64,000 nucleotides of DNA from Candidatus Poribacteria bacterium. Lineage in GTDB: Bacteria > Poribacteria > WGA-4E > WGA-3G. A program made the position numbers and the translations under genes. The stretch lies in assembly GCA_028824575.1 (NCBI GenBank), contig JAPPDN010000059.1:43514-107513 (forward strand), read 5' to 3'. Positions 17,099-63,958 of the stretch are shown here, piece by piece. The notes beneath the pieces are model-generated. The model did no database searches. It was given only the letters and a program-made list of their open reading frames with translations, and was not told where the DNA came from. The stretch's first letter is position 1. Each line of letters begins with the position of its first letter.

Positions 17099-17615
17099 GG
17101 GTTGGGAATGTAATACATTGTCCCGCAAGTCCACACGTTGTCCTCGGATGCCACACGCGCATCCGTTCTGGCGCTACGGATTTGCTCTATTTAAAGACCA
17201 AATCCCCCAACCCTTACACAAAAGGAAGGAGACGGGAGCGAGCAATCGCTCCCGAAACATCATGAGAATCAGAAACTTGACTGGCACAGGCATCATCTTG
17301 GCACTGAGCACCGAACGCCTATATCTCGAACCGACGCGTAAGCCTGCGATCGTGCGATGGACGCAAAAGGTGATTGGAAGCCGACACATCGAATTCGGCG
17401 CGCCCTATGAATGCTTGCAGGTCCCTATCCTCGAGGACATTGCCCATGTTGAGGGGATACCCGATCCAGAGCCGTTCACGCTCTTCCTCGTAGATCAGCA
17501 CGTTTTCGATAACAGCGATCGTCCAGACGTTTTCACTTACAACGACGAGAAAGACGATGGCAATGGGAATGTGATGATTGCGTATCTGGTTGGGAAATAA
17601 GAGAGTTAGCAGCCA

Positions 17616-17650
17616 AAAGGGCGGGAGTTCGGTTTCCCGCCCTTTTACTT
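17616..17650 (+). terminator. intrinsic terminator (GGGCGGGA-loop-TCCCGCCC + TTTT)
   Basis: Direct reading: aagggcgggagttcggtttcccgcccttttactt, downstream of the plus-strand gene block. Confidence 0.6.
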
Positions 17651-17783
17651 TGCCGTAGCCTGCTAAAAAACACCGAGCGGAACTACTGTCGATGGTATGA
17701 AGTCAATCGGAGTGTTAGAGTTAAACCGAGGCGCGGTTAGTCAGAAAGACCAGAATTGAAAACTATAATCATATAGAGAACAA

Positions 17784-19196: not shown

Positions 19197-19319
19197 TACT
19201 TTTTCCTCTATATGACAATCTTGGTTTAGAGGGTGATCTGTGTACTGCCTACGGTTTTTTGGACCACTCCCTAAAGGAAGATTGTGCTACAATACAATCT
19301 CAATTGAAAGGAGAATCCA

Positions 19320-19604
19320 ATGGCGAAACGAAGAAGATTCACCCCTGAGTTTAAAGCCGAACTTGTTTTTGAAGTCCTCAGCGGTGTCAGTTCCCAAGCA
19401 GAAGTCTGTCGACGACACAACCTCAACGAAAACCAACTCTCACAGTGGAAGCGACATCTGCTTGAAAATGCGTCCTCGTTGTTTGAGTCTTCTGATAAGC
19501 AGTCCAGTGATGCTGAGAAGCGTATCGCCCACCTTGAGCAGCTCGTTGGGAGAATGGCGGTCGCCTTAGACATCCAAAAAAAACTATTGACGGAGTTGGA
19601 CTGA
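19320..19604 (+). CDS. IS3-family transposase OrfA (HTH)
   Basis: MAKRRRFTPEFKAELVFEVL... typical IS3 orfA. Confidence 0.85.
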   Translation: MAKRRRFTPEFKAELVFEVLSGVSSQAEVCRRHNLNENQLSQWKRHLLENASSLFESSDKQSSDAEKRIAHLEQLVGRMAVALDIQKKLLTELD

Positions 19605-19654
19605 CGTTATCTGAAAAGCGATGCCACATTTCGGCACTGCAAAAGGAGCATTGC

Positions 19655-20425
19655 GTGCGAGATATTTGTCAAATCCTCGGTGTCAACCGCAGCAGTTTCT
19701 ATTATCAACCCAAAGCGGATCCGTCCGAAGCGGTGCTGCGGGCTGAAATAGAGAAACTTGCTGGTGCGTATCCGAGATACGGGTATAGACGTATCACCCA
19801 GCTCCTCGTGCGTCAGGGATACAGCGTTGGGACCCGAGGCGTCGCTCGATTGATGAAAGAGAATCATCTCTTGGTCTGCGTCGAACGTGCGTGTCGAACA
19901 ACAAAGTCGCTTCAGGGAGATAAACCGTGGAGCAATCTACTCAAAGACCTTGAGATCTCTCATCAGGATCAGGTCTGGTATGTTCGTCTCAGGGAACGCT
20001 TCATCTATGTCGCTCTGCTCATGGATGTTTTCACCCGAGTGATCAAAGCGTGGCATCTGAGTCCACACTTGAACCAATCTCTGACGCTCAAACCGCTCCA
20101 AGAGGCATTCTGTCACAGCGTCCCGGAGATCCATCATTCCGATCAAGGAGTGCAATATCTTTCAAAGGCGTATCTCTCGGTGCTCAAAGCACACGCTATT
20201 GAGATTTCAATAGCTCGCAGAGGGTGTCCTTGGGAGAACGGATACGCCGAAAGACTCATCCGCACGCTCAAGGAAGAAGAAGTCCACCTCAACGATTACC
20301 AAGATATTACCGAGGCTCGACAAAGCATCGGTCATTTTCTCACACAGGTATATAACCATAAACGTCTCCATTCGGCGTTAGGGTATCTGACTCCCGCCGA
20401 ATTTCAGAGACAAACCTTCTCTTAA
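19655..20425 (+). CDS. IS3-family transposase OrfB (DDE integrase core), probably expressed as an OrfAB fusion by -1 frameshift
   Basis: rve-type motifs: DQGVQY, WENGYAERLIRTLKEE, NHKRLHSALGYLTP. Confidence 0.85.
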   Translation: MRDICQILGVNRSSFYYQPKADPSEAVLRAEIEKLAGAYPRYGYRRITQLLVRQGYSVGTRGVARLMKENHLLVCVERACRTTKSLQGDKPWSNLLKDLEISHQDQVWYVRLRERFIYVALLMDVFTRVIKAWHLSPHLNQSLTLKPLQEAFCHSVPEIHHSDQGVQYLSKAYLSVLKAHAIEISIARRGCPWENGYAERLIRTLKEEEVHLNDYQDITEARQSIGHFLTQVYNHKRLHSALGYLTPAEFQRQTFS

Positions 20426-48296: not shown

Positions 48297-48328
48297 CCCC
48301 TTCCAAAATCTAACGTTTTTATCTCTAT

Positions 48329-48410
48329 GTGCAGAATATCACACCTGCACAGTATCACATCTGCACACTTGAAAACGTGCATATTTGCAGGTGTGCACAC
48401 GTGCAACCTT
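48329..48410. promoter_or_regulatory. iteron-like repeats (CACCTGCACA / TGCAGGTGTGCACACGTGCA) upstream of parA - candidate parC centromere/operator
   Basis: Direct reading; same core motif at 41590-41629, 42204-42229 and 47623-47676. Confidence 0.45.
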
Positions 48411-48428
48411 GCACAGATGGAGGTGAAA

Positions 48429-49049
48429 ATGAAGACACTCGCAATCTTAAGCAGAAAAGGCGGAACCGGCAAAACAACCCTCGCAACGCATCTGTCCGTT
48501 GCCGCGGAACGTGCCGGACACACGACCGCCCTCATAGACTTAGACCCACAGTCTTCCGCGGCGAAATGGCGCGACAACCGTGAGGACGACACACCCGCAG
48601 TCATTTCCACACACTCGGAACGCTTACAACACATCCTGAAACTCGCCGAGGATAACGGCGCAACCTTCGCTATTCTGGATACCGCACCGCATACCGAAGT
48701 CGCAGCCCTCGAAGCGGCGCGGGCTTCCGATATGGCGTTAATGCCCTGTAGACCCTCACTCCTTGATCTACAGGCGATCGGCTCCACCATCGATGTCGCC
48801 CAACTCGCCAGAGTGCCGGCACACATCGTTTTCAACGCCGTGCCACCCCGTGGCGATCTCACTGAACAAGCGCGGCAAGCCGTAGAGATATATGATGTCC
48901 CGTGCGCACCCTGCGAGATCGGAAACCGAATCGGGTTCGTCCATGCCTATAACGCGGGGCTGACTGTCCAAGAGTTTGAACCGAAGAGTAAAGCCAGCGA
49001 TGAAATCAGCGCACTTTACACATACATCGCCAAAGAGATGGGAGTCTAA
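48429..49049 (+). CDS. parA: ParA/Soj-family partition ATPase
   Basis: Deviant Walker A KGGTGKTT, GGAGG RBS, about 206 aa (short type Ib-like ParA). Confidence 0.8.
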   Translation: MKTLAILSRKGGTGKTTLATHLSVAAERAGHTTALIDLDPQSSAAKWRDNREDDTPAVISTHSERLQHILKLAEDNGATFAILDTAPHTEVAALEAARASDMALMPCRPSLLDLQAIGSTIDVAQLARVPAHIVFNAVPPRGDLTEQARQAVEIYDVPCAPCEIGNRIGFVHAYNAGLTVQEFEPKSKASDEISALYTYIAKEMGV

Positions 49050-49323: not shown

Positions 49324-49488
49324 GGGGAAATGGACATTCAGACTGTAGAATTATCAAGATTTTCCTTGACTTTTTTTCTGAAAAATGCTATGATGATTGC
49401 ATCACGTAGGCAGACATGACAAGCGTTGTTGCAAGGCAGCGTGTCTGCCTCCCACTTGTCAGGGGATAAAAACGTGATACGTGATAGC

Positions 49489-50583
49489 ACCATGCATTTA
49501 CGTTCACAGAAAATAGAACTTAACCCGAATAATAAGCAATCCACGCTTATGGCACAACACTGCGGATATAGGCGTGTTGCGTTTAACTTTGCGTTATCGT
49601 CTTTCAAAACAGGATTAGACGCAGATAATTGGCAGTCTGAACAGGACTTGTGTAAGGAATTCAATGGCGTTAAACGCGATAAGTTTCCTTGGTCTACAGA
49701 TCTATCTCAAAACGCCTCTAAAAACGCAATACGCGCCCTCGGTGATGCTATCACGCGTTGGAAGAAAGGACAAAACCGTTTTCCTGTCTATAAGAAACGA
49801 TCTGGTAAATGTTCTTACCAAGCCGACAATGGTGCAGGAACGGTAAAAATCCATAAGAAACGGATTGGCTTACCGAAAATAGGGTGGGTTCGCATGCGTG
49901 AGGAACTGCGGTATTCTGGTGAAATCACCAAAGTCGTCGTATCTCGTAAAAACGATAAGTGGTTTGCCTCTATCACCGTGAGACGCCTCGATAGTAGTAA
50001 CTACAAACACCAACCGCCTCTATTTAACGATAAAGAACCCATCGGAATTGACGTAGGTATCAATACACTTGCCACCTGTTCTAATGGCGATACATACGAT
50101 AACCCACGTCCACTCAAGCGGTATGAGCGGAAGTTAGCACGTACCAATCGTGCGTTAGCACGTAAAGTTTTTCAGTCAAAAAACTGGCATAAAGCAAAGA
50201 AACAACTGAGTGGTGTGCATTATCGGATAAGCAATATCCGTGAAGACGCTCACCACCAAGCGACGACAAAGATTGTCCGCAAAGCCTCTGCTATTGGTAT
50301 AGAGACTCTGAACATCAGCGGGCTGTTAAAGAACAGAAAACTTGCCAAGGCGTTATCCGACTCGGCATTATCGCGGTTTCTCACAATGCTCAAATACAAG
50401 GCAGAACGCCGTGGGATACCGATAACAGAGGCAGATAGGTTCTTTGCCAGTTCCAAGATGTGTAGCAACTGCGGACACAAGAAAAAGCACCTAATGCTAT
50501 CCGATAGAGTTTATAACTGCCTACAATGTGGTACGTCTATAGACCGAGACCTCAACGCTGCGATTAATCTGTGTCCGTCTTGA
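49489..50583 (+). CDS. tnpB: TnpB (IS200/IS605 OrfB family)
   Basis: IGIDVGI, CSNCGH...CLQCG, DRDLNAAINL. Confidence 0.85.
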   Translation, partial: TMHLRSQKIELNPNNKQSTLMAQHCGYRRVAFNFALSSFKTGLDADNWQSEQDLCKEFNGVKRDKFPWSTDLSQNASKNAIRALGDAITRWKKGQNRFPVYKKRSGKCSYQADNGAGTVKIHKKRIGLPKIGWVRMREELRYSGEITKVVVSRKNDKWFASITVRRLDSSNYKHQPPLFNDKEPIGIDVGINTLATCSNGDTYDNPRPLKRYERKLARTNRALARKVFQSKNWHKAKKQLSGVHYRISNIREDAHHQATTKIVRKASAIGIETLNISGLLKNRKLAKALSDSALSRFLTMLKYKAERRGIPITEADRFFASSKMCSNCGHKKKHLMLSDRVYNCLQCGTSIDRDLNAAINLCPS

Positions 50584-53255: not shown

Positions 53256-56228
53256 CTATTTACGAGACACGGCATCCCCTTCCTCAAGCGAGATATGGAA
53301 CATCCCGCGCCGTTCGGTCGCAACATAAAGCCTGTCACGGTCAACAACAAGCGCGAGAACTTTGCCGGGAACATTCGGAGAAATCTGATTCCATTCGTCG
53401 TGAGCCTCCAAACGGTAGACTCCCTCATCACCCGCACCGTAAATCGTAGGACCATCCACAGCCAATCTTTCAATAACACCTTCAGCGGTGATCACGCGCC
53501 AATGCATCCCGGTTTGTGATGCTAAGACACCTCTGTCTGTCGCGACGTAAACCGTCGATCCGGCAAAGAGAATCTCCGTGAAATCGGTGAACGGGAGCGG
53601 CAGCGTTGACGTAATGTCTTTCCAACTGTCCCCGCCATCCAGCGATTGAAACAACTTGCCATCGCGTTTCCCGACGTAGACGGTTTTTCCTGAAACCGCT
53701 AACTTGAACCCATATTCCGTATCCGCAGCGGACGGCTCGCCAGTATCTACCAATCCGGTGTCCTTCCATTCTGGATCGCCGGGATTCCATTTGAAAAGTT
53801 TCCGTTTATATTCGGCATACAATGTCTCGCTACTGACCGCAAATGCACCAATTGCTTCATGTTCTTTCCGACGCAAAGTCTTTACCGAATTATCATCTCC
53901 ATGACCGTGGACTGAATGTGCCTGTCCTACTCCCTTGCTATTTGCTGACACCTTGATGGATGGAGCATCCACTTCAAACGTGGGGATCCCTTGAAACCGG
54001 ACGAGGCTATTGCCATCAGCAGATAAACGGAAAATGCCCAAATTGTCTCCTTCAGGTAAAAATACATAGAGCCTATTGTTAGCAACAGTTAACCAAGAAT
54101 CAGAAGAAATAGTGATGTAGGACTGTCTGGCTTCGATCGCGCTGTGTCTGCCATTGCTAAGGTCAATCCGAACGGTTTTCCATGACTCACCCCGGTCCAC
54201 CGATTGGACAAGTGCATCACCGGTATGTGCGTAGAGCTTGTTGTTGAGTGTGACCAAATCCAATATCCCAGTTCCGATCATGCCATCCATGAACAGATGC
54301 CACGACTCACCGCCATCGGTTGTCCGGTAAACACCCGATCTTCCTGCTTTGTAAAATGTATTCTCATTTCCTGCCACAGCTGCCAAACCACTCAGGACAA
54401 ACGAATCCCTGTCAAATCCAAGGTCTACCCACGTCTGTCCACCGTCTCTTGATCGAAAACGAGTGGTCGTCTCTGCGAAGATCGTCTTACCGGTGACCAA
54501 CAAACTCATACCCGACCGTGCCCTTATAGAACGTGATCGACCTATCGGCGTTATTTCAGTCCATGAGGTGCCCAAGTCCCTTGAATGGAAAGCCCTGCTC
54601 AAACTTGAATTGTCGTCATACATCATCTGCATGACTTCCTTCGATTCCGATTCAATCTGTTCTAAGCGAAGAAAATCAGGACCCGTTCCAACATAGAGAT
54701 GACCTTCAGCCACTGCTAAGGAATAGATGGATCCGGATATATCTTCAAGTAATCGTTTCCACGTCCCTGAATCAAGTCGATAGAGGCCTTTGTCTGTGCC
54801 GACAAATACCGTGTTTCCAACCGCAGTCACTGCGGAAATCCTTCTGCCCATCAATCCATCATCAAAAAGTGTCCACTGGGCACCTACATCTGTAGAGCGG
54901 AACATACCCTTCTCATAGAGGGCAAGATACATCGTCCGATGCAGATGGGAACCGTTTCCTTGTGCTTCATCTACGACTACCAATCCAATGGCATCTCCTT
55001 CTGGACGGGGACCGAGGGATTTCCAGGTCTCACCGGCATCGGTTGAGGCAAATACCTCATCATTAGAGACGACGTAGAGTGTTCCTTCATGCTCTGCCAT
55101 AGGCACCCGCAATCCTTCAAGAGGGAAGTTACTGTTTATGAGCGTCCATGCCGGTGCATCTGGTGTCAACCTATAGATACCTGTCGGTGAAAAAGCGTAA
55201 ATCGTCCCTTCAGCTGTTGCGGATATATCAGCAACAGAACCGCCTTGCGGTCCAGCTGTCTGTGCCCATTGGGATGCGGAAAGTTGAATTGCCCCATCCT
55301 GTGTAAGGGATGCTAAATCCGATTCAGAGACTTGCACGCCCGTCCCTGTGTTTCTATCGGTGTTCACAGCGCGCCCTGCTTGACTTCGGACATCGGGTTT
55401 CGTATCAATATTGAGAACGATAGGCGTGTCTATAATTTCAATCGTCGGTTCTGACTGTGCCTCGAAACTATACGGTTTCTGAAATCGGACGAGGTATTGA
55501 TTGCTCACACCCAACAGCAGTAGCGTCACCAGGACCGCAGATGCCCCAAAAGCCGCCCATGGCAGTAATGGTTTTCCTGTTGAAGGCGGTGCTAATTTCG
55601 TATCAGCGACTTTCTGGAGGATGTTCTGTGTTAGATTTTCAGACAGTCGGACACTTCCGAGCATCTCTTGAACCAGGAGTTCCTCGTCCTGTTTCAAACG
55701 CTTTCGCGCCCGCTGCAGCCGACTCGTAATCGTGTTCACCGATACACCTAAAAACTTGCTAATCTCCTTCGCCGTCATTTCACCGAGATAGTAAAGCGTC
55801 ATGACGGTGCGTTCACTCTCGGGTAGTTTTTCCAGAAGTTTCTTGACGAGTTCCTGGTGATGTGAGCGGGCCTCTTCTTCGTGTTGTGTCGACACATACT
55901 GTTCGTAAAAGGTTTTCTCCATCTCTGCCATGGTGACATCCTCCAACGACTTTACTTCCGGTTTGTTCTTTCGGAGATAGGTATTACACAACTGATTTGT
56001 AATGACATAAAGCCACCCAGAAAACTGTTTAGGATCCTTTAACTTTGCGAGATGCTTGTAGGCGCGAAGGAAAGCGTCCTGCGTAATCTCCTCGGCGAAA
56101 TGGAAATCACCAATCCGCCGCCAAGCAAGCGCGTGAACACTTTTCTGATGCTTGCGGACTAACGCCGTGAACGCTTCATCGTCTCCCGACAAAACCTTGT
56201 AAATGAGTTGAACATCATCTTCTACCAT
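53256..56228 (-). CDS. ECF sigma factor fused via a TM segment to an extracytoplasmic BNR/sialidase-like beta-propeller domain (sigma/anti-sigma-like fusion)
   Basis: N-terminal sigma-70 regions 2 and 4 (ITQDAFLRAY..., LYYLGEMTAKEISKFLGVSVNTITSRLQRARKRL); TM segment LLPWAAFGASAVLVTLLLLGV; at least 7 BNR motifs (STDAGETW, STDVGAQW, SRDLGTSW, SRDGGQTW, TTDGGESW, SVDRGESW, SLDGGDSW). Confidence 0.7.
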   Translation of the reverse strand: MVEDDVQLIYKVLSGDDEAFTALVRKHQKSVHALAWRRIGDFHFAEEITQDAFLRAYKHLAKLKDPKQFSGWLYVITNQLCNTYLRKNKPEVKSLEDVTMAEMEKTFYEQYVSTQHEEEARSHHQELVKKLLEKLPESERTVMTLYYLGEMTAKEISKFLGVSVNTITSRLQRARKRLKQDEELLVQEMLGSVRLSENLTQNILQKVADTKLAPPSTGKPLLPWAAFGASAVLVTLLLLGVSNQYLVRFQKPYSFEAQSEPTIEIIDTPIVLNIDTKPDVRSQAGRAVNTDRNTGTGVQVSESDLASLTQDGAIQLSASQWAQTAGPQGGSVADISATAEGTIYAFSPTGIYRLTPDAPAWTLINSNFPLEGLRVPMAEHEGTLYVVSNDEVFASTDAGETWKSLGPRPEGDAIGLVVVDEAQGNGSHLHRTMYLALYEKGMFRSTDVGAQWTLFDDGLMGRRISAVTAVGNTVFVGTDKGLYRLDSGTWKRLLEDISGSIYSLAVAEGHLYVGTGPDFLRLEQIESESKEVMQMMYDDNSSLSRAFHSRDLGTSWTEITPIGRSRSIRARSGMSLLVTGKTIFAETTTRFRSRDGGQTWVDLGFDRDSFVLSGLAAVAGNENTFYKAGRSGVYRTTDGGESWHLFMDGMIGTGILDLVTLNNKLYAHTGDALVQSVDRGESWKTVRIDLSNGRHSAIEARQSYITISSDSWLTVANNRLYVFLPEGDNLGIFRLSADGNSLVRFQGIPTFEVDAPSIKVSANSKGVGQAHSVHGHGDDNSVKTLRRKEHEAIGAFAVSSETLYAEYKRKLFKWNPGDPEWKDTGLVDTGEPSAADTEYGFKLAVSGKTVYVGKRDGKLFQSLDGGDSWKDITSTLPLPFTDFTEILFAGSTVYVATDRGVLASQTGMHWRVITAEGVIERLAVDGPTIYGAGDEGVYRLEAHDEWNQISPNVPGKVLALVVDRDRLYVATERRGMFHISLEEGDAVSRK

Positions 56229-56421
56229 CAGGATTCTCTATCATGAATGAGCAGAACTGATTGTGTTGACCTGTTTTTCAATGTAATTACGATTATTTTT
56301 ATTAAAGACTCCACTTTTCGGCAAAAAACGTGCATAATCTGAAAAAAAGTTACGAAAGTGGCGGTTTCACTGTCTCTGATAGGAAACCGCCGAAAATAGA
56401 TTGTCAATACATTCCTTAGCG

Positions 56422-56682
56422 TTATTCACATTGACTGTGCCAGACCCCTACACAGGTCCCTGCATGCCATTGGTCACACCAAACGGCGCAATACTCGCCG
56501 TCTGCACAGTCATCACCGTCAGGGTCACACGTTAAATGTGCCTGAACGGGAGGCGTAACGATTGCTTGGGCGAGCAATACACTTGCGCTTGCGACACCCA
56601 GAGCCAATGGTGACTTAACGCCAACACGACCCTCTTCGGATTTGAGGAAGTCACTAATTTTACTGCGAATGTTGTTTTTCAT
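56422..56682 (-). CDS. small secreted Cys-rich peptide precursor (paralog of 62282-62497)
   Basis: The conserved 45-aa N-terminus MKNNIRSKISDFLKSEEGRVGVKSPLALGVASASVLLAQAIV ends in an AQA cleavage-like site, followed by a 6-Cys tail. Strong AAAGGAGA RBS. Confidence 0.45.
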   Translation of the reverse strand: MKNNIRSKISDFLKSEEGRVGVKSPLALGVASASVLLAQAIVTPPVQAHLTCDPDGDDCADGEYCAVWCDQWHAGTCVGVWHSQCE

Positions 56683-56896
56683 CTATGGGTTTTCTCCTTT
56701 CTGCCGGTGCTCCCGTCCAGCGGGATCAGTCCCTAACGGTTGTCAGGAGACCCATTTTCAGCACGAGAAGAAAAAGATGAAAATCTCGGATTTTCATTGC
56801 TTTTCCTCTTATCGCTTATGGGGTGGAGCCAGCCCGCTGAAAATGTTTAAAAACCGGTTCAATTTGGACATAGAATTCCAGTTCATAAACATGTTG

Positions 56897-58753
56897 CTAC
56901 TGGCATGGCGTTCCACTCGCCCGCAAGAGTTGATTCGCTTGGAATTTGTGATTATCGACGAAAATCGTTGGAGAAGCCCGAACACCGAGTTCCGCGGCAC
57001 GCTTGATGTTTTCTCGGAAAAGCTGTTCTGCTTCCGGACTGTCAAATAATGCCTGAATCTTCGCGACATCAATGCCGAGTTTCTCTGCACAGTCTTCCCA
57101 GCTCTTGTCCAATTTCTTGCCGCGGCACAAAATATAGTCGAGATACCGATCGGGGTATTCCCGTGCGATGAGCAACTGTCGGATGTTTTCTGCGACTTCA
57201 GGGTAACCGTGAAGGCTCGTAAACGGCGTTATGTCTTGTGCAGAAGGCGCTTCTTTTTCCTGCGCAACAAATTGAAGTTTGAAGTCGATTTTATCGCCAA
57301 ACTCCTTCACGATCGGAATAATCTTTTCTTCCGCTTGAACTCCGTATGGACAATAGCTCATGACAAAGAGTTCCAGCGTCGGTTTCCCCATCCGTGCGAT
57401 ACGGGATGCTAAGAGTTCCTCCAAGTTCATCGAGGCGCGGCTATGATCCACATCCTTCGTATGCAGTTCTACAACCTCAGCGAACCCTGGCGAATGTTCC
57501 GGGTCGTGGCATTGTAAACAGAGCGATGTATCCGCACCGCTACGGATATTGCTTTTTTTCGGGTTGCCGACGTGCTGCTTGCCGGGACCGTGGCACGTCT
57601 CACACTGCACACCTTTGAGCGTTGTGTTCTGGTCCCCTATTTGAAATCCCGTTGAATACCCGAACCCAGTTGTATGGCAGGAGACACACCCGGCATCAAA
57701 GTATCGCTCTTTTTTCAGAAGGGTTTCAAAGGCAAAAGCGTGACGCGTCGCCGACCACTGGAGGTATTCCTGCTCATGGCATTGCTGACACGCCGTCGCT
57801 GAGACATACCCATTTTGTGGATCTCGTTCCAAGTGCTGGTTGGCAAAGAGCGGGGTCAGATCAGCGGAGGGTGAGGCTTCCCGATAAAAGTCAGTTAGCA
57901 ATTGGCGGACAGGTTTGGATTCCGCGACGTCACCTGTCAACGCCAGTTCTGTTGCGTAGTGGTGTGATAGTTTCCCATGGGCATCCAGCCAAAGTGCCAA
58001 TACCCCCAAGGTTTTGCCATGCGGTTCAGATGCGACATAAAGTGTTTCTCGGTCTGCCGTGACGGTTTCAACGCCACCAGATTGGATTACAACGTCAACA
58101 TGCTCCGTGGTATCAAGATGTCCCAATCCCACAACAAGATTCACTTCTGATACGGCTCGCGTCTGAGGTGTCCCCGCAACGAAAGCGATCCGATGTTGTC
58201 CGACTTCCTTGATAATAAAGGGTTGTGTGAAGTCGGTTTCTATAGCATCAGGTGCTAAGAACGGGAACGTGGCAACGGCAGAGAGTCGACCGAGATAAGT
58301 GTTCCCATAGGAAAGATCTGACGCACTGAGGGCGACGACATCGTATCCCATTGTGGACATCGCCTTGAGATTGACCTCACACCGCTTTGTGTCTATCTCC
58401 TCTGTCCCATCAAAAATATTTCCAGCATCGACCAAGAGTGTTGGGAATCCATATTCCCGAATCTGTTCCACAACGTAAGCACGCCTCGGGAGCCCACCCG
58501 ATTGTTCTTGATAGCATCCACACGGCTCCAGATGGCTCTCTGTGCTACTGGTATACAGAACAATTAGAGAAGGCGGCTCACCGCTTTCCAGTTTTGACAG
58601 CACGGTTTCCAAGCGGTCTCCGGAAACTGTTCGTGCTTGCTGTTTCACCACCTGTATCTGTTTGAGTCTTTGAGATTCTGCCCATTGTGCGTAAAAGGGG
58701 GGTAACGTCACCCCGACCGTTAGAAGTATTAAAATAAAAATCGCGCGTTTCAT
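56897..58753 (-). CDS. exported tetraheme c-type cytochrome fused to a C-terminal DsbA-like thioredoxin-fold domain
   Basis: Signal peptide MKRAIFILILLTVGV; four CxxCH motifs (CQQCH, CVSCH, CETCH, CLQCH); C-terminal FVMSYCPYGVQAEEKIIPIVKEF... DsbA-like. Confidence 0.6.
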   Translation of the reverse strand: MKRAIFILILLTVGVTLPPFYAQWAESQRLKQIQVVKQQARTVSGDRLETVLSKLESGEPPSLIVLYTSSTESHLEPCGCYQEQSGGLPRRAYVVEQIREYGFPTLLVDAGNIFDGTEEIDTKRCEVNLKAMSTMGYDVVALSASDLSYGNTYLGRLSAVATFPFLAPDAIETDFTQPFIIKEVGQHRIAFVAGTPQTRAVSEVNLVVGLGHLDTTEHVDVVIQSGGVETVTADRETLYVASEPHGKTLGVLALWLDAHGKLSHHYATELALTGDVAESKPVRQLLTDFYREASPSADLTPLFANQHLERDPQNGYVSATACQQCHEQEYLQWSATRHAFAFETLLKKERYFDAGCVSCHTTGFGYSTGFQIGDQNTTLKGVQCETCHGPGKQHVGNPKKSNIRSGADTSLCLQCHDPEHSPGFAEVVELHTKDVDHSRASMNLEELLASRIARMGKPTLELFVMSYCPYGVQAEEKIIPIVKEFGDKIDFKLQFVAQEKEAPSAQDITPFTSLHGYPEVAENIRQLLIAREYPDRYLDYILCRGKKLDKSWEDCAEKLGIDVAKIQALFDSPEAEQLFRENIKRAAELGVRASPTIFVDNHKFQANQLLRASGTPCQ

Positions 58754-58930
58754 AAAACATATTAAATCAATATTTGTTGATTTGCATTCCTTTCCTATAT
58801 AAATAGGACTTACGCATACTGCTCTTTTGTAGCATAAACTTTTAGTTTGTGCCACCAGAACGCTGTGTTTTCCGAAAAATCTCATCTCACAGAACGGGCT
58901 ACAGTCAAAATTGCGTAAGTCCTGATAAAG

Positions 58931-60067
58931 TTAGAATAATTGGATCATCTTAGAATAAAAAGGGCCCTGACAAAGAATTGTAAGAAGGGCACCGACAGAG
59001 ATCACAGGTGCGAAACGAATTGAAGGTTGGACATTTATCCGATTGCCGAATTCGGCAAATGCCCCTGCCGCGGCAAGGCTTTGTAATTGATCAATCTCCT
59101 CTGTAGTGAGACCTGCGGGATCCGGCGAAATAACGATGTTGTCGTCCTGACCGCTTGAAAATCCAACTTGCTTCTTTTTGTAGTGGGTAGTGCCGTCTGG
59201 CTCTTCAACCCGAACAATTTGTTCAGCAGGGATCATACCCACTTGGAGACCATTCACATCAACAGCACTGTCTAAGGTCACACTCGCCAAACTCAGAACC
59301 AACTGTTTGGCAATAACGAAAACCACGAGATATAATCCTAAGAAAAAGGCGAAGCCAGTGAGAAAGACCGACACAGACGGCGTTGCTTGCACCGCTAACC
59401 AGACGCACACAAAACTAATGACAGCATAATAGACCGGCGTTTTCGGCAGGGGGGACAGGAGTTTCTGTATTAACGTGAATGCCACCAAAACGAAAACAAG
59501 ATGCAGAAACCGGTCAGGTTCCCATCCAACGCGCTGCAACAGATAGGTAAGCGCAGATCCGATCCCGATAAACAGCAATAGACCGAAAAATTTTTCGAGA
59601 AGTGCTGCTTTCTGAAAGTTTGACTTAAAGAAATACCGAAAAAGGTCCAACTTATTCCGCATCAACACGAACTTGTAAAGTAGGTAACCCAAGAGTCCTA
59701 TTGAGTACGGAACAATGATATTGAGTGCGAGTATTAACGGCGGAAAACTCAAAGCACCGCTCAGATTTCTGAACAGTGATAGCGGAAAGATTAAAGAGAG
59801 TCCCCAAAAGAGCTTGGAGTCTCCGGGTGAGAAAATACCAAACCAATAGAAAGCGAAGGCGATAAGCCCGCTCCCGCAGAAGAGTCCTAAGATATAGAGC
59901 GGCGTTGTTGTGCCGAGATACCATGCCATTAACTGACTCAGTGTCCCCACATATAAAAGTCCGAGCGAACAGAAGTTGCGAATCTTTTGTGTCTTCAGGT
60001 CAGTATAACTCGCATATCCACAGAAAACGAGTGCCAAGAAAATCAGAAAGTATTCGTAGTGCGACAT
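58931..60067 (-). CDS. prepilin peptidase (A24)-like polytopic membrane protein with C-terminal soluble extension
   Basis: YTDLKTQKIRN and FSPGDSKLF resemble the two catalytic-Asp motifs of A24 peptidases; about 8 TM segments. Confidence 0.5.
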   Translation of the reverse strand: MSHYEYFLIFLALVFCGYASYTDLKTQKIRNFCSLGLLYVGTLSQLMAWYLGTTTPLYILGLFCGSGLIAFAFYWFGIFSPGDSKLFWGLSLIFPLSLFRNLSGALSFPPLILALNIIVPYSIGLLGYLLYKFVLMRNKLDLFRYFFKSNFQKAALLEKFFGLLLFIGIGSALTYLLQRVGWEPDRFLHLVFVLVAFTLIQKLLSPLPKTPVYYAVISFVCVWLAVQATPSVSVFLTGFAFFLGLYLVVFVIAKQLVLSLASVTLDSAVDVNGLQVGMIPAEQIVRVEEPDGTTHYKKKQVGFSSGQDDNIVISPDPAGLTTEEIDQLQSLAAAGAFAEFGNRINVQPSIRFAPVISVGALLTILCQGPFYSKMIQLF

Positions 60068-60091
60068 AATATGAACAAAAAGAGCCTTTCT

Positions 60092-60988
60092 TTAAGGTTT
60101 TACGCTTAACGCGAATGTATCAATGAAGGAACCCGATTGACGTTGGAACTTCTTCGTCTCAAAGTCAATAATCTTGAGTCCAACTTTTTCGTAGAGTGCT
60201 AAGACTTCATCAGGAGAATCAAAATCGTAGAGGTGCATCAACAGGGGCAGCTGCACTGGGAGTGCTGTGATGAGGTATCCGCCCGGTTTCAGTACACGCA
60301 TCGCTTCTAACAAGCCAGTTTCTGGATCTGGGATATGCTCAAGCACTTCAACAGCGATAACCCCATCGAAGGTATCGTCAGGATAGTGTAGACTGCGAAT
60401 GTCTCCGATTGACAAGGCACTCCTTTCACTTACCTCTTTTTTTCTCAAAAGCCTTTGAGCGTGCTGAAGGCAGTACTGGCTAATATCAACACCCTTAGTT
60501 TGCCATGAGGAATCCTGTTGTAGAATGAACGCTGTCAAAACGCCCGGACCGAAACCGAGATCACAGAAATGCGATTTCTCTTTGAAACAGTTCAAATGCT
60601 TACCGATGAATGCCTTTCGCTCCAAAGCAGGTGGAAAAGAGATATAGTTCAGGTGTTCACTGATTGGGTAATATTTTGTTTCATAGAGTTTCGTTTTTAC
60701 CGTTTCAAAGTCCCTATCTGCTGTGAGTTGAGTAGGAAGCTCAAGCGCGAAAAGTTGTTCAACAGTTATCTCGCCGCTGTAGAGAATGTCGCCAACAATT
60801 TCTTCAGTGTGTGCCCACTTCGTTTCCGATTGTTGAATCAGGGTGTCTGTCTGCTCCAAGATCGAGGACAATAGATACTGGATGGTCTGATTAAAACGGG
60901 CACGATGGTATTCCACGGCGTGTGGATATGAAGCTGTATGTTTTTGAAATTGTGCCTCAAACGCGGATTCAAATTCAGGATAGTACAT
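60092..60988 (-). CDS. class I SAM-dependent methyltransferase
   Basis: Motif I DLGFGPGV, post-I and VLKPGGYL motifs. Confidence 0.6.
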   Translation of the reverse strand: MYYPEFESAFEAQFQKHTASYPHAVEYHRARFNQTIQYLLSSILEQTDTLIQQSETKWAHTEEIVGDILYSGEITVEQLFALELPTQLTADRDFETVKTKLYETKYYPISEHLNYISFPPALERKAFIGKHLNCFKEKSHFCDLGFGPGVLTAFILQQDSSWQTKGVDISQYCLQHAQRLLRKKEVSERSALSIGDIRSLHYPDDTFDGVIAVEVLEHIPDPETGLLEAMRVLKPGGYLITALPVQLPLLMHLYDFDSPDEVLALYEKVGLKIIDFETKKFQRQSGSFIDTFALSVKP

Positions 60989-61187
60989 TAAGGGTTTCCT
61001 CGGTTTATCGGAATACAGTCGATTAGTGTTGTTTGAGCTTATCCTATAAAGTTGTTATTTTTTCTCTACTCGGCGAGATAGCAAAGAAAAGTTCTGACAC
61101 CCACGTCGGAGATATATTCGCTGACAAATCTGTGGTGAGTCGAATAGATTCTGCTCAAAGCGTTCCAAGTCGGTTATGCCACAAAAC

Positions 61188-62165
61188 CTATTTCCTTTTC
61201 AGTTCTCCCCATACTGTTGTGAGCAACTGCGGTTGAGGTAAAACCGGTAATGCGAATGCTGGATCAAACCAATCCCCCAGATAATTCTGTCCAATATGAG
61301 TTAGTTGCTCGGATTGCTCACCTTCCAACCCTCTCTTGAATATTTGTGAATTCTTATTTCTATCCGCCTGTCTATAGACAATTGAATCACCATGCGGAGA
61401 CCACACGACCCCTCTTGCCCAGGGTCCAGCTTCATCAACAATTTGGGTCAGTCCCATCCCATCGCGATTTATTGTATAAATCGTTTCCGTCTCAGCGAAA
61501 TCTTCAAGAGGCACCCGATGCTGCCACGAAAAAGCAAACTTGTCTCCTGTCGGAGACCACGCCAGAGCTCCACTCATATATGACGGTATTGCCTTGCGTG
61601 GGAAAATAATTCTCCGTTTGAGTGTGTCGAGGTTGAATATACTTATTTGCATGCTTCTCGGCCAACCGACGAGAAAAGCTATCTCGGTGCCATCTGGGGA
61701 CCAGTCAGGAGAACTCCCAACAGCTATTCGATCCTCATTTTCACCCTTGATTGTGGCAGTATAGATGACCCATTGAGCACGCACCGTGCGGACGTACGCA
61801 ATCTGTTTCCCATCTGGCGACCACGTCGGACCTGCTCTATCTGCCTCCTTTCCAAAGACCCGCCGCACATTAGATCCGTTTGGATCCATGAGATATAAGT
61901 CCCAAACACCATCTCGGTCTGAGACGAAAAGTATTTGTTCACCCGTTGGCGACCAGATGGGTGTAATGTCCTGTGCGCGATGATGTGTTATTCGGATCTG
62001 CTCACTTCCGTCTGGGTTCATCAGGTAAATATCCCGATTGCCTTCACGCGTTGCCCAAAATGCGATTTTAGGAGTTGTGGGGATTTCTGCGAAAACCGGA
62101 CGAATTTTCACGAGCAAGGCCCCCAGGCTAAGGAGCAGAAAAAGAAGTAGAGGATACCGTCGCAT
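61188..62165 (-). CDS. secreted TolB-like (PD40/WD40-like beta-propeller) protein
   Basis: Signal peptide MRRYPLLLFLLLSLGALL; repeats WSPTGEQILFVSDRDGVWDLY, WSPDGKQIAY, WSPDGTEIAF; C-terminal tail LTTVWGELKRK. Confidence 0.55.
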   Translation of the reverse strand: MRRYPLLLFLLLSLGALLVKIRPVFAEIPTTPKIAFWATREGNRDIYLMNPDGSEQIRITHHRAQDITPIWSPTGEQILFVSDRDGVWDLYLMDPNGSNVRRVFGKEADRAGPTWSPDGKQIAYVRTVRAQWVIYTATIKGENEDRIAVGSSPDWSPDGTEIAFLVGWPRSMQISIFNLDTLKRRIIFPRKAIPSYMSGALAWSPTGDKFAFSWQHRVPLEDFAETETIYTINRDGMGLTQIVDEAGPWARGVVWSPHGDSIVYRQADRNKNSQIFKRGLEGEQSEQLTHIGQNYLGDWFDPAFALPVLPQPQLLTTVWGELKRK

Positions 62166-62281
62166 AAGAACTCTCCCGATATTCTTTGTTTTTTCAACAA
62201 AATGCGTCATGAAAATTAGGAATAAAACTACAGAGGGAGGCGACAAAAGTCGCCATACCCTCTGTAAGCAAGAAAATCGCC

Positions 62282-62497
62282 TTAAGGCATACAAGTGCCA
62301 TGACTGCATACTTTATTTCCAGGGCAAGGACGTCTCTCATCGCACTCCCATGCTTCAGCCCGTGGTGCACCAACGATAGCCTGTGCCAGTAGCACGCTAC
62401 CAACCGCCGCACCGAGCGTCAGTGGAGATTTGACTCCCACCTTGCCTTCCTCGGATTGGACAAACTCGCGGATTTTACCGCGGAGATTCTTTTTCAT
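62282..62497 (-). CDS. small secreted Cys-rich peptide precursor (paralog of 56422-56682)
   Basis: MKKNLRGKIREFVQSEEGKVGVKSPLTLGAAVGSVLLAQAIV + Cys-rich tail; identical 5'UTR GCACCGGCAGAAAGGAGAAAA. Confidence 0.45.
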   Translation of the reverse strand: MKKNLRGKIREFVQSEEGKVGVKSPLTLGAAVGSVLLAQAIVGAPRAEAWECDERRPCPGNKVCSHGTCMP

Positions 62498-62590
62498 ATC
62501 GGTTTTTCTCCTTTCTGCCGGTGCTTCCACTCCGGCGAGATTGACTTCCCAACTCCGGTCAGGAACCCATTTCCAAGACGAATTCATTCG

Positions 62591-63958
62591 CTACGGAAGT
62601 GAAGCCTTCCCTTGGAAATGCTTGAAAACTGCCTCGATTTCAGCAGGTGTATGCTGTTCCACTAATATCTCTGCTAAGGCGGTTTTAAGGCAGTCATATC
62701 TATTGCTCCCCGCTCGGTACACACTGGACTCGGTGGTTCCAGACCCCGGATCATACCGACGGCAGAAGACCGGCGGAGACACATTTCTTTCTCTTCTAAA
62801 GGCATTCACGCTTTGCTGATGCCCCTCTTCAAAGCACTGAACGATTTTTTGTGCTACTTTTTCCCAAGTGAATTTTTGAGCCAAACCCTTTGCAACGTTT
62901 TCGCATTCGGTGCGTGTATGAGAGGGTTTTAACCACTGATTTATTGTGTTCGACAACTCGGATATTGAAATACGGAAATTACTGGCATGATCCCAGTCCG
63001 ACTTCACGACAACGCCAGCACCCGAAACTTCCGCAGGCATCCCATACTTCGTCATCGCAACACAGGGTGCACCATACGCCATCGCCTCTAAGACAATCGA
63101 CAATGGGGTGCCCGGCATCGCGGGGAAACAGACGAGATCCAATGCTTGAAAGAATATCGGTAAAACTGACAGCGTCTCCTCATCATCGGCACTGAAAATG
63201 ACGACATTCTCCGGCGGATACCGATACTGCTGTTCTAACAGTGTGTCATACACAAAGATCGCGAGATGTGGATTGGCGCGTGCGAATTCAGAAATCCACG
63301 CTGCCCCACGCCTCGGTTCAAATCCAGAGATGAGTCCGACAACCGGTTGCTTCGCAAACATCGGGTTCTCAAAGAGAGCGGCGGTGTGCTGTTTTGCCAA
63401 CGCCTTGTCACCGATTGGCGCAACGACATCTATCCCATCAGGGATCACCCGCACGTTGTCTGCTAACACCCCTAATTCAGTGATCCATTCCTTCATCCAC
63501 GAGGCTTTAACCACCAGTGTATCTTTTGGACTTTGGAACGCACGGAGCATCAAAAGCACTTTCAGCAGAACGTGTTGTAGCCGCTGGCTTCCCTCTATGC
63601 AGTGGACAATCGGGACATCGGGAATCCGATAGTATAACAGATCGTCCGTCAAGAATTGTGAGAGCAGCAGGATACCGTTATAGCCATCCATCGCATACCA
63701 CGGCGGCATCAAGGCATTCCCCGCTGCTACGTCTATGTTCCGAACCTCGACCGCATCGAGGTCCTGAACAGCTGTTTTCTTCTCTTCAGGAAACGACAAA
63801 GTTTCCAACTCAGCGAACGCCGCGAGGTGGGTCAAAAACTGATAACGGTTCAGATTCGTGATGTAATCCAACGACGACTTCTCCACCGTAAAATGGAACG
63901 GGACCAATACCTTCGGTTTCTGATCGCGCTGCTGCCAATGCGCAACTGTTGGTTCCAC
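62591..63958 (-). CDS. GT-B fold glycosyltransferase (GT1/GT4-like); ORF may extend beyond the window edge
   Basis: C-terminal donor-binding region (...LDLVCFPAMPGTPLSIVLEAMAYGAPCVAM...); the reading frame remains open upstream of the annotated Met to the window end. Confidence 0.5.
   Translation of the reverse strand: MEPTVAHWQQRDQKPKVLVPFHFTVEKSSLDYITNLNRYQFLTHLAAFAELETLSFPEEKKTAVQDLDAVEVRNIDVAAGNALMPPWYAMDGYNGILLLSQFLTDDLLYYRIPDVPIVHCIEGSQRLQHVLLKVLLMLRAFQSPKDTLVVKASWMKEWITELGVLADNVRVIPDGIDVVAPIGDKALAKQHTAALFENPMFAKQPVVGLISGFEPRRGAAWISEFARANPHLAIFVYDTLLEQQYRYPPENVVIFSADDEETLSVLPIFFQALDLVCFPAMPGTPLSIVLEAMAYGAPCVAMTKYGMPAEVSGAGVVVKSDWDHASNFRISISELSNTINQWLKPSHTRTECENVAKGLAQKFTWEKVAQKIVQCFEEGHQQSVNAFRRERNVSPPVFCRRYDPGSGTTESSVYRAGSNRYDCLKTALAEILVEQHTPAEIEAVFKHFQGKASLP

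Follow-up and report, generated by a model that had tools for sequence, protein, structure and literature searches.

The locus described here recalls, part by part, several systems that are already known. Secreted disulfide-rich mini-proteins of the knottin or defensin type, and proteins with extended signals such as the extended signal peptide region (ESPR) of autotransporters, have the same positively charged n-region, hydrophobic core and A-x-A site as the peptides of this locus. Orphan structured 5'-leader RNAs, held in Rfam as riboswitch candidates, have the multi-helix form, the covariation and the conserved junction nucleotides that are also seen here. It is also known that extracytoplasmic function (ECF) sigma factors fused to a transmembrane (TM) helix and an extracytoplasmic domain (ECF52/53, SCO4117; IutY of ECF243) are activated by regulated proteolysis (PMC8999054). 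We analysed a stretch of 64,000 nucleotides from a Candidatus Poribacteria bacterium (contig JAPPDN010000059.1), hereafter called the window and numbered from its first letter, in which two small minus-strand genes, designated pepA and pepB, are alike in their upstream regions and in their N-terminal parts. The most fitting description of the finding is that of a new family of Cys-rich peptide cassettes with extended signals and an undescribed leader RNA, in a conserved Poribacteria-wide gene cluster with a putative envelope or signalling role.

An earlier note on this DNA had described the two open reading frames (ORFs) together with a shared upstream block and a shared N-terminal leader of about 45 aa, and all of these are present as it had placed them (Table 1). 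The window contains exactly two copies of the 21-mer GCACCGGCAGAAAGGAGAAAA, at 56690-56710 and 62504-62524, just 5' of each start; no copy is expected from 100 shuffles of the window, and the two upstream regions can be aligned over ~90 nt. The two proteins are 53% identical over 66 aa (BLASTP 2e-21); the likeness is limited to the N-terminal ~45-50 residues, and the Cys-rich tails are unrelated. In the pepA precursor, an N-terminal extension (MKNNIRSKISDFLKSEEG) is followed by a signal peptide that ends in ...TPPVQA, and the cut predicted between VQA and H, after residue 48, would release a mature peptide of 38 aa (HLTCDPDGDDCADGEYCAVWCDQWHAGTCVGVWHSQCE) with 6 Cys. In the pepB precursor, the 18-aa extension MKKNLRGKIREFVQSEEG is followed by the signal peptide KVGVKSPLTLGAAVGSVLLAQAIVGAPRAEA, and the cut predicted between AEA and W, after residue 49, would release a peptide of 22 aa (WECDERRPCPGNKVCSHGTCMP) with 4 Cys. 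The earlier count of six Cys was right for pepA, and that of five for pepB was wrong. The tripeptide AQA, which had been taken for the cleavage site, sits within the hydrophobic core, and the A-x-A that is found throughout the family comes 5-7 residues later.

A protein identical to pepB is annotated as hypothetical in a Candidatus Poribacteria metagenome-assembled genome (MAG; P0049). An in-frame ATG at 62587 gives a 101-aa ORF (62282-62587, minus strand) that runs through the leader RNA described below, and this longer form is used in some public gene calls (P0139, P0154). We rejected the long start on the grounds that pepA has no such extension, that the short start has a strong Shine-Dalgarno (SD) sequence and that the extension crosses the structured leader; the 101-aa call is probably a mis-annotation. 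The note had also proposed AlphaFold models of the Cys-rich cores. The core of pepA was predicted with confidence by AlphaFold2 (predicted local distance difference test, pLDDT, 83-88 for residues 50-86), and its leader is predicted to be disordered (pLDDT <50). A Foldseek search of this model against the PDB gave no significant structural neighbour; the best match, a spider toxin, had E=9.7 and is not meaningful.

A profile of pepA and pepB matched 575 proteins at E<=1, and those that carry a name are without exception 'hypothetical protein' entries from Candidatus Poribacteria. Among 1.84 billion representative proteins, searched exhaustively with HMMER, only 98 clusters at 50% identity were returned, and when one genome per GTDB species was scanned, each of the 45 loci obtained came from Poribacteria. 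Applied to the six-frame ORFs of these 45 loci, a hidden Markov model (HMM) of the leader detected at least 128 small ORFs with a leader, up to 8 of them per 20 kb, and 128/128 share the strand of the surrounding cluster genes. The leader does define a family, as an HMM search suggested in the earlier note was meant to reveal, and the design of a conserved leader with a variable Cys-rich core is general, with 128 genes in 45 Poribacteria loci. Paralogues within a single locus are 73% identical in the leader versus 31% in the tail. The 'hypervariable core' of the note does not hold for genes of the pepA type, whose orthologues are conserved (64-94% identity over the full length) and have 6 Cys in the pattern ...WCDxW..GTCxGxWHSxC; the tails of the other types are very diverse. 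Neither Pfam nor NCBIfam has a match for pepA or pepB, and a Pfam scan of 122 members gave only weak Cys-rich noise (Lustrin, Dickkopf, defensin-like, late nodulin). A literature search found no paper that ties Poribacteria to such peptides or to an RNA motif. Judged by these searches, the family is specific to the phylum Poribacteria and previously undescribed.

Distant members of the family retain the junction [DE]-[DE]-G-[RKHQ]-[VI]-[GS]. A second, more divergent peptide branch (...DFF.[KQ]EDG.VG.KNAL..., with a Cys-rich tail) is located 3' of the gene for an ECF sigma factor with a BNR propeller (ECF-BNR), at L017:16751-17071, with 17312-18214 and 19245-20072, and at L050:152-1407. The next genes of this branch encode LamG/ConA-like lectin-fold proteins and not propellers, and the RNA covariance model had no match at this position of L017 at E<=0.001 and a weak one, of 17.9 bits, in L050.

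The anatomy of the leader, compiled from 260 distinct members, has three parts. The first is an amphipathic, charged extension of 18 residues, M-K-N-N-[IL]-R-x-K-I-x-x-F-[LV]-x-S-E-[ED]-G, in which the final four positions are invariant. The second is a Sec-type signal, [RK]-V-G-x-K (K in 97%) and then P-L-x-L-G-V-A-S-x-S-[LV]-L-L-A-Q-A-[MI]-V, whose hydrophobic core of 19 residues lies ahead of T-P-S-A-Q-A. The third is a c-region with an A-x-A end, in which position -1 is A in 89%, G in 7% and S in 3%, and position -3 is A in 73% and V in 18% (together 91%); in 96% of the members, the first Cys comes 1-5 aa after the site. The predicted mature peptides have a median length of 40 aa, and 88% of them have 4 or 6 Cys; the fast-evolving tail is 22-45 aa long. 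The earlier note had held that its reading would fall if the charged n-region were not conserved in homologues, or if no other genome showed the same organisation. The charged n-region is kept in all homologues, with S-E-[ED]-G invariant together with K+5, P+7 and L+8, and the leader-conserved, core-variable design recurs.

Identity in the leader is 0.72, 0.87 and 0.44 at the first, second and third codon positions, which points to selection at the level of the protein instead of the nucleic acid; by this measure, strong purifying selection acts on the protein over its N-terminal ~48 residues. The basic n-region, the h-region and the small residues at -1 and -3 of a Sec (type I) signal peptide are all present. 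A Tat signal is not indicated, since there is no conserved RR and the F-L-K-like stretch is parted from the h-region by S-E-E-G-R-V-G-V-K. The family resembles the knottin- and defensin-like mini-proteins in its small mature domain with an even number of Cys and its predicted compact, beta-rich fold, with an N-terminal extension placed before the signal. As compared with extensions of the ESPR type, the 18-aa extension and the following S-E-E-G-[RK]-V-G-x-K are near-invariant across ~260 paralogues, and neither the extension nor the junction matches a described extension motif in Pfam or NCBIfam. Conservation of the leader goes far beyond what Sec requires, which implies its recognition by a dedicated factor.

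The structure of the upstream block was derived from an alignment of 95 distinct upstream regions. The block would form a leader RNA of ~125 nt with five helices, P0, P0a, P0b, P1 and P2. P0 (ATTTCCAAG / CTTGGAAAT) encloses the two short hairpins P0a and P0b; P1, of 11 bp (TTTCCCAAC / GTTGGGAA), is followed by a conserved CAATC junction; and directly after P2 (GCCGG / CCGGC) comes the unpaired SD sequence AGAAAGGAG. RNAalifold recovered P0 independently, with GC/AU/CG alternation at two pairs. In the model of 28 pairs, 87.7% of the cells are paired, versus 33-55% when the partners are slid. Double-sided changes number 191, versus 72±10 after shuffling, and none of 500 shuffles reached 191, although such shuffle controls are not true probabilities because the sequences are related paralogues and orthologues. 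The helices contain 244 G·U pairs versus 57 A·C mismatches, an excess that is expected only if the sense strand is transcribed. The minimum free energy (MFE) fold of the pepA leader RNA (-61.9 kcal/mol, z = -3.2) reproduces P0, P0a, P0b and P1, and an insertion of 42 nt in this copy, which the covariance model places in the P0b loop, is a perfectly nested extension of P0b.

In the window, the covariance model found no copies other than the two leader RNAs of pepA and pepB, and the 45 loci gave 126, all on the strand of the cluster. Each of the 126 ends at the ATG of a leader-peptide ORF, except for a few at pseudogenised or fused remnants and one directly 5' of a methyltransferase gene. As a specificity control, we used 533 kb of unrelated metagenomic and viral DNA (83 loci, preselected for a 17-mer); matches occurred in 1 of the 83 loci (L059, origin not checked), one full-length at 148.7 bits and one of 28 bits truncated at the contig end. 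In exact scans of viral and metagenome collections with the 17-mer, nearly all matches were due to chance. Rfam models matched nowhere in the window at gathering score and, in 56300-62900, not even at E<=10. Its pattern of substitutions identifies the upstream block as a sense-strand fold of a putative transcript and not a promoter, and the leader RNA is a new structured RNA class. As in the orphan leaders of Rfam, the element lies immediately 5' of the SD sequence of one gene family. Unlike them, it has no Rfam match at E<=10 and occurs in a single phylum, only with a single gene family, at densities of up to 8 copies per 20 kb; the predicted fold does not sequester the SD sequence, and the 5' part of some copies reaches into the last codons of the upstream gene.

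The earlier note had pointed to a real and interesting feature, of which it misread the upstream half: it suggested that the block 'GRAAATGGGT..CCTGAC' could be an ECF-type promoter. These letters are really the 3' strand of P0 and the 5' strand of P1, both would-be boxes lie inside helices with strand-specific G·U pairing, and the would-be -10 (CCGTTAGG, GCAATAAGG, CGATGCGG, ...) varies and covaries with the 5' strand of P1. Outside the helices, no conserved -35 and -10 boxes were seen by eye. A scan with the sigma-70 consensus gave no site upstream of either peptide gene, and its total of 12 sites versus 8.5±3 expected is not informative. In the intergenic copies, TTGAAA-N15-TGT-TATTCA, ~50 nt 5' of P0, is a possible promoter, an unverified candidate.

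A stem-loop follows each of the two peptide genes. The 90 nt 3' of pepB, including the hairpin, have an MFE of -30.2 kcal/mol (z = -6.1), and across the family the MFE of such a 90-nt stretch lies below -25 kcal/mol in 70% of cases, versus 16% of control windows. Each peptide gene had been called the first gene of a minus-strand operon. Since each gene has a strong stem-loop of its own, the statement is only partly right. As deduced from these comparisons, the cassette unit combines a leader RNA of ~125 nt with a small ORF and, 3' of it, a stem-loop; in most cases the next gene encodes a predicted secreted beta-propeller.

Where a cassette adjoins the glycosyltransferase gene that opens the cluster (GT1), the RNA extends at its 5' side into the last codons of this gene (..VFKHFQGKASLP and then a stop codon, at -96). 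In copies that follow a gene for a TolB-like or UshA-like protein, the RNA block is intergenic, and remnants of the 3' end of GT1 are found further upstream, which implies that the arrays grew by tandem duplication. On this evidence the duplicated unit would consist of the GT1 3' end, the RNA, the peptide gene, the hairpin and the propeller gene. Decayed or rearranged cassettes were also observed (L021:1-1221, L014:5632-5751, L031:4751, L024:11532, L033:19713 and L045:691). In L021, the six first codons of the leader (MKKNLR) are joined directly to the TolB-like propeller, and in L014 the leader RNA stands directly 5' of a methyltransferase gene. Several peptide ORFs have frameshifts or stops with the upstream RNA intact, and some of these may be errors of long-read assembly.

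Table 1. Coordinates of the cassettes and of the cluster genes in the window
Feature	Positions	Strand	Remarks
pepA	56682..56422	minus	86-aa precursor ORF
pepA leader RNA	56683..56855	minus	covariance model 101 bits, E 1.4e-21
P0, pepA RNA	56836-56845 / 56753-56762
P0a, pepA RNA	56821-56835
P0b, pepA RNA	56761-56815		lengthened by a nested 42-nt stem insertion
P1, pepA RNA	56728-56752
P2, pepA RNA	56703-56721
SD, pepA RNA	56694-56702
Stem-loop 3' of pepA	56360..56391	minus	GGCGGTTTCC...GAAACCGCC; U-tract not immediately adjacent
pepB	62497..62282	minus	71-aa precursor ORF
pepB leader RNA	62498..62630	minus	covariance model 139 bits, E 1.5e-30; MFE fold same as consensus
P0, pepB RNA	62611-62619 / 62569-62577
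P0a, pepB RNA	62595-62610
P0b, pepB RNA	62578-62591
P1, pepB RNA	62544-62566
Junction CAATC, pepB RNA	62539-62543
P2, pepB RNA	62517-62536
SD, pepB RNA	62508-62516		AGAAAGGAG
Stem-loop 3' of pepB	62230..62265	minus	ACAGAGGG..CCCTCTGT, then GUUUUAUU; terminator- or stabiliser-like
GT1/GT4-type glycosyltransferase	62591..63958	minus	first gene of the cluster; Glycos_transf_1 3.3e-5, below gathering score
TolB-like PD40 beta-propeller, gene partner of pepB	61188..62165	minus	own signal peptide MRRYPLLLFLLLSLGALLV...
Class I S-adenosylmethionine (SAM) methyltransferase	60092..60988	minus	Methyltransf_11 9.5e-20; ~130-aa uncharacterised N-terminal region
A24-like (prepilin-peptidase/GxGD) polytopic membrane aspartyl protease	58931..60067	minus	Arc_PepC-like C-terminal domain
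Exported fusion of UshA-like phosphoesterase, cytochrome c554-type multihaem and DsbA-like domains	56897..58885	minus
ECF sigma-TM-BNR protein	53256..56228	minus	3' of pepA

The genes that accompany the peptides mostly encode propellers. The TolB-like protein matches PD40 (2.3e-23) and TIGR02800 (1e-44), the latter under the equivalog cut-off (153 bits vs 343) and over the propeller part only (profile positions 244-360). With no equivalog-level match, it is a stand-alone PD40 propeller and not a TolB of the Tol-Pal system. Its start is most likely at 62165 (MRRYPLLL..., with a ribosome binding site), which leaves no overlap with pepB. The ECF-BNR protein consists of sigma regions 2 and 4 (residues 1-185, best match SigW-type), a linker of ~35 aa, one TM helix and an extracytoplasmic BNR/Sortilin-Vps10-like beta-propeller of ~730 aa. 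It matches Sigma70_r2 (PF04542, 1e-14), Sigma70_r4_2 (PF08281, 2.8e-16), TIGR02937 (3e-29; 101.6 bits vs a cut-off of 42.9), Sortilin-Vps10 (1e-11), BNR and PSII_BNR, and of the sigma-70 regions only 2 and 4 are present, as in ECF sigma factors. No anti-sigma domain (zf-HC2 or RskA-like) was found between sigma region 4 and the TM helix with Pfam and NCBIfam. The ~35-aa linker and this result indicate a membrane-tethered sigma factor and not a demonstrable sigma/anti-sigma fusion; that part of the earlier description was not borne out, and the pairing of the two peptides with an ECF-linked BNR propeller and a TolB-like propeller stands and recurs. A resemblance of the TM helix of ECF-BNR to the peptide leader, as a possible substrate motif common to both, was considered and rejected (-0.6 bits with the leader HMM).

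A TolB-like propeller gene comes next after 63 of the 72 peptide genes that are not of the pepA type, with a median gap of 160 nt. Genes of the pepA type are followed by ECF-BNR, directly or after genes for a nucleotidyltransferase (NTP-transferase) and a phosphomannomutase (PMM), in 25 of the 34 loci of at least 15 kb in which synteny was counted. In distant relatives, the next gene encodes a PD40, Ycf48-type BNR, Kelch or LamG protein. From this variety of partners, it appears that adjacency to a secreted beta-rich binding module outlasts a change of its fold.

As in ECF52/53, SCO4117 and IutY, a membrane tether joins the sigma regions of ECF-BNR to a large sensor outside the cytoplasm, and release by a protease is plausible. 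Unlike those proteins, ECF-BNR has no detected zinc-finger anti-sigma domain, has a linker of only ~35 aa and a BNR/Vps10-like propeller of ~730 aa as sensor, and is preceded directly by the gene of a small secreted peptide with a structured RNA leader. The intramembrane protease encoded nearby is an aspartyl (A24-like) enzyme and not of the RseP type. A recurrent motif, GCACGTTTTT..AAAAGT(G/T)G.GTCTTTAAT, was observed 5' of the ECF genes, in the window at 56301-56333 (minus strand), between the pepA hairpin and the ECF gene, and also in L013, L026, L030, L034, L037, L038 and L039; the L038 copy abuts a truncated leader RNA. Many other loci have a clear extended -10 promoter of the sigma-70 type (TTGCTA..TGGTATACT) ~110 nt 5' of the ECF start.

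The cassettes lie in a conserved one-directional cluster. Its order is GT1, [peptide and TolB-like propeller] x N, methyltransferase, A24-like protease and UshA-like/cytochrome c554/DsbA fusion, and it continues with a pepA-type peptide, often genes for an NTP-transferase and a phosphomannomutase, and finally the ECF sigma-TM-BNR gene. Among the 34 loci, 33 contain the A24-like, UshA/cytochrome or ECF gene, and 390 of 391 matches are on the strand of the peptides. GT1 is syntenic in 26/34 loci, and in the window its stop is at 62591-62593 and its 3' end overlaps the pepB leader RNA. The methyltransferase is syntenic in 19/34 loci and also in the deep-branching locus L047.

The A24-like gene, present in 27/34 loci, encodes a protein that scores 24.8 bits with PF01478, slightly short of the gathering score (26.5), and also matches PF06819 (3e-4). 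Many of its orthologues have precomputed PF01478 matches, and one was named 'Flp pilus assembly protein protease CpaA' by JGI. The two Asp motifs YTDLKTQKIRN and FSPGDSKL (YTD23LK, SPGD83SKL) are invariant in 120 orthologues, with identities of 84-94%, and the profile match together with the two catalytic Asp assigns the protein to the A24 peptidases. A search against PDB sequences gave no match for it. The UshA/cytochrome/DsbA fusion (Cytochrome_C554 4.9e-15; DSBA 4.3e-9; UshA_like_PCGU 2e-63, below cut-off) is syntenic in 28/34 loci, and its start is likely the internal MKRAIFILILL at ~58753. The fusion has PCGC where the NCBIfam family 'UshA-like (seleno)protein, PCGU' has a selenocysteine motif, and thus looks like a Cys version of that selenoprotein family.

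The deep-branching Poribacteria MAG that holds L047 has the order GT1, peptide, Kelch, methyltransferase, PMT_2, A24 and cytochrome c554, where PMT_2 is a glycosyltransferase of the GT-C type. Three such clusters are present on the complete genome OX639992.1, and the whole cluster was observed in 2-3 diverged copies per Poribacteria genome (L004, L032 and L033/L037, all on OX639992.1; contigs of 6.0-6.3 Mb). Compared with the window, the A24-like protein of the L032 copy is 50% identical and its BNR domain 36%. Genes for an NTP-transferase and a phosphomannomutase/phosphoglucomutase stand between the pepA-type gene and ECF-BNR at L017:10375-12497 and in L002, L004, L005, L008, L010 and others. 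The sugar genes are a hint that products of the cluster synthesise an activated hexose, or transfer it, in the envelope. Two genes of the window are unrelated to the cluster, namely a TnpB/IS605 OrfB-type gene at 49426-50583 (plus strand; OrfB_IS605 7e-28, Cas12f1-like TNB 7e-23) and a gene for a ParA/MinD-like ATPase at 48327-49049.

We regard it as fairly probable that pepA and pepB are two copies of a Poribacteria cassette that works as follows. Sec would export the peptide, signal peptidase I would cut it after A-x-A, and it would then be oxidised in the periplasm to 2-3 disulfides, for which the DsbA-like/cytochrome fusion of the cluster is a plausible oxidant. The mature peptide may act by binding the propeller encoded next to it, and in the pepA type the propeller so bound would be the BNR/Vps10-like sensor of the membrane-tethered ECF sigma factor. 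The common RNA leader could place all cassettes under one post-transcriptional control, through stability, processing or translation that responds to a ligand or a protein. The invariant N-terminal extension and junction may be a recognition or cleavage site for a factor of the cluster, with the A24-like GxGD protease as the best candidate.

Several points weigh against this scheme. Export, the cleavage sites, the disulfides and the peptide-propeller binding are all deduced from sequence, and the hydrophobic core, at 19 aa, is long by the standard of cleaved signal peptides and could be a membrane anchor. Propeller identity correlates no more closely with the identity of the tails (rho 0.43) than with that of the leaders (rho 0.49), which means that there is no specific signal of co-evolution; co-evolution as a sign of binding was rejected, and the correlation reflects co-inheritance. 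The relatedness of the aligned sequences limits the shuffle controls as stated above, and neither the sigma-70 scan nor the alignment by eye located a promoter for the peptide cassettes. In the copies adjacent to GT1, the final codons of that gene lie within the 5' part of the RNA, and the structure may therefore form only on transcripts that are internally initiated or processed.

Other explanations were weighed against the same data. One is that the upstream conservation reflects a DNA operator or promoter, or the residue of recent duplication or gene conversion, and not an RNA. Cassettes did spread by tandem duplication that took ~100 nt of the GT1 3' end along, P1 is an inverted repeat in DNA, and no promoter was found elsewhere. 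However, the preference for G·U over A·C is strand-specific and would be meaningless for duplex DNA, the five helices are nested and include the long-range P0 with its GC/AU/CG exchanges, the pepA insertion extends a stem in perfect nesting, and the motif is less variable from copy to copy than the co-duplicated GT1 flank (by eye, unquantified); we consider this explanation extremely unlikely. The earlier note had likened the peptides to precursors of ribosomally synthesised and post-translationally modified peptides (RiPPs) or bacteriocins, which would imply cytoplasmic maturases and a dedicated exporter, with an ECF-type promoter in the upstream block. As in arrays of RiPPs and class II bacteriocins and in glycocin loci, there is a leader/core split with several precursors per locus, confirmed here in multi-copy arrays, and glycosyltransferase and Dsb-like neighbours; the cluster has a glycosyltransferase, a methyltransferase and a DsbA-like domain, and the invariant extension, which goes beyond the need of Sec, could be a recognition sequence. 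A glycosyltransferase and thiol-disulfide oxidoreductases mark glycocin loci, which the cluster recalls only loosely. The precursors here carry a complete Sec signal, with A-x-A directly ahead of the core, instead of a GG leader, and the partners are beta-propellers. With Pfam and NCBIfam, no known maturase, RiPP recognition element (RRE), C39/ABC exporter or GG site was found among the cluster genes of the window, L017 and L047. The pepA cores are conserved orthologues, and the supposed promoter is an RNA with compensatory changes whose '-10' is not conserved in sequence. The RiPP or bacteriocin reading is thus very unlikely.

Two further readings are minority possibilities. The peptides might be pilin-like, with a class III (Flp-like) signal that an A24-like peptidase cuts after the Gly of S-E-E-G, the helix being retained with a Cys-rich head. 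Flp/type IVb prepilins with TadV/CpaA, and archaeal class III signals with FlaK/PibD, have the same charged leader and invariant Gly with a GxGD protease alongside. In the present family, the invariant Gly closes a short charged segment just ahead of the hydrophobic helix, the motif acidic-acidic-Gly-basic-V/I-G is kept in the most distant relatives, and a conserved A24-family protease with both Asp motifs, one orthologue of which bears the name CpaA, is found in essentially every cluster; DFLKSEEG also resembles what we take to be the Flp leader of Caulobacter, RFLKDESG. Against this, 0 of 122 members match Pfam Flp_Fap (PF04964) even at E<=10, position +5 is Lys (97%) and not Glu, +6 is S/A, and basic residues follow the Gly. 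The helix contains a conserved Pro and Gly and is followed by a conserved A-x-A, the clusters showed no gene for a pilus ATPase, platform or secretin, and the protease, unlike those of the Flp and class III systems, is divergent (378 aa) with an Arc_PepC-like C-terminal domain. This reading is unlikely. The peptides might also be antimicrobial or host-directed effectors of a polymorphic toxin or bacteriocin-immunity system, with the propeller as immunity or sequestering protein. The tandem arrays combine a conserved export region with a fast-diverging C-terminal domain, each with a paralogous partner, the tails are 34% identical where the propellers are 55-70% identical, pseudogenised copies are common, and there is a weak, non-significant likeness to defensin, knottin and toxin families. 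However, the pepA type is conserved across species and tied to a sigma factor instead of an immunity gene, the system is also present in the deep-branching Poribacteria MAG, and no outward export apparatus is evident. We also know of no immunity protein that is a 325-aa secreted beta-propeller, and we give this reading very little credence.

An analogy with amine dehydrogenases was set aside. Methylamine dehydrogenase and quinohaemoprotein amine dehydrogenase have a small Cys-rich subunit and a beta-propeller subunit, with c-type cytochrome or thioredoxin helpers. The present cluster likewise encodes together a Cys-rich peptide, a propeller, a haem c protein and a thioredoxin-like protein, a likeness by analogy only. 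The mature peptides here, at 22-45 aa, are much smaller than the small subunits of those enzymes and are hypervariable, their partners differ in fold, and no radical SAM or MauG-type genes were seen.

The cassette scheme set out above could be carried further, to a Poribacteria-specific periplasmic peptide-signalling system in which each peptide is the ligand of the adjoining propeller, pepA binds the ECF propeller, the A24-like protease releases the sigma factor and/or cuts at S-E-E-G, and a riboswitch-like RNA controls the repertoire. That all of this holds together is quite unlikely.

Members of the Poribacteria, a phylum not yet brought into culture, are best known as dominant symbionts of sponges, and to our knowledge almost no lineage-specific gene of theirs has a function. 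The present results add a conserved, undescribed system that occurs in nearly every genome examined, with up to 8 cassettes for predicted secreted disulfide-rich peptides per 20 kb. The leader RNA is a ready candidate for riboswitch or protein-binding studies. The extended signal peptide represents a new architecture, whose invariant junction suggests a dedicated step of processing or recognition, possibly by the divergent GxGD protease. The recurrent adjacency of peptide and propeller, with partners of non-homologous folds and one pair with a tethered sigma factor, offers a testable entry to envelope or host sensing in this phylum.

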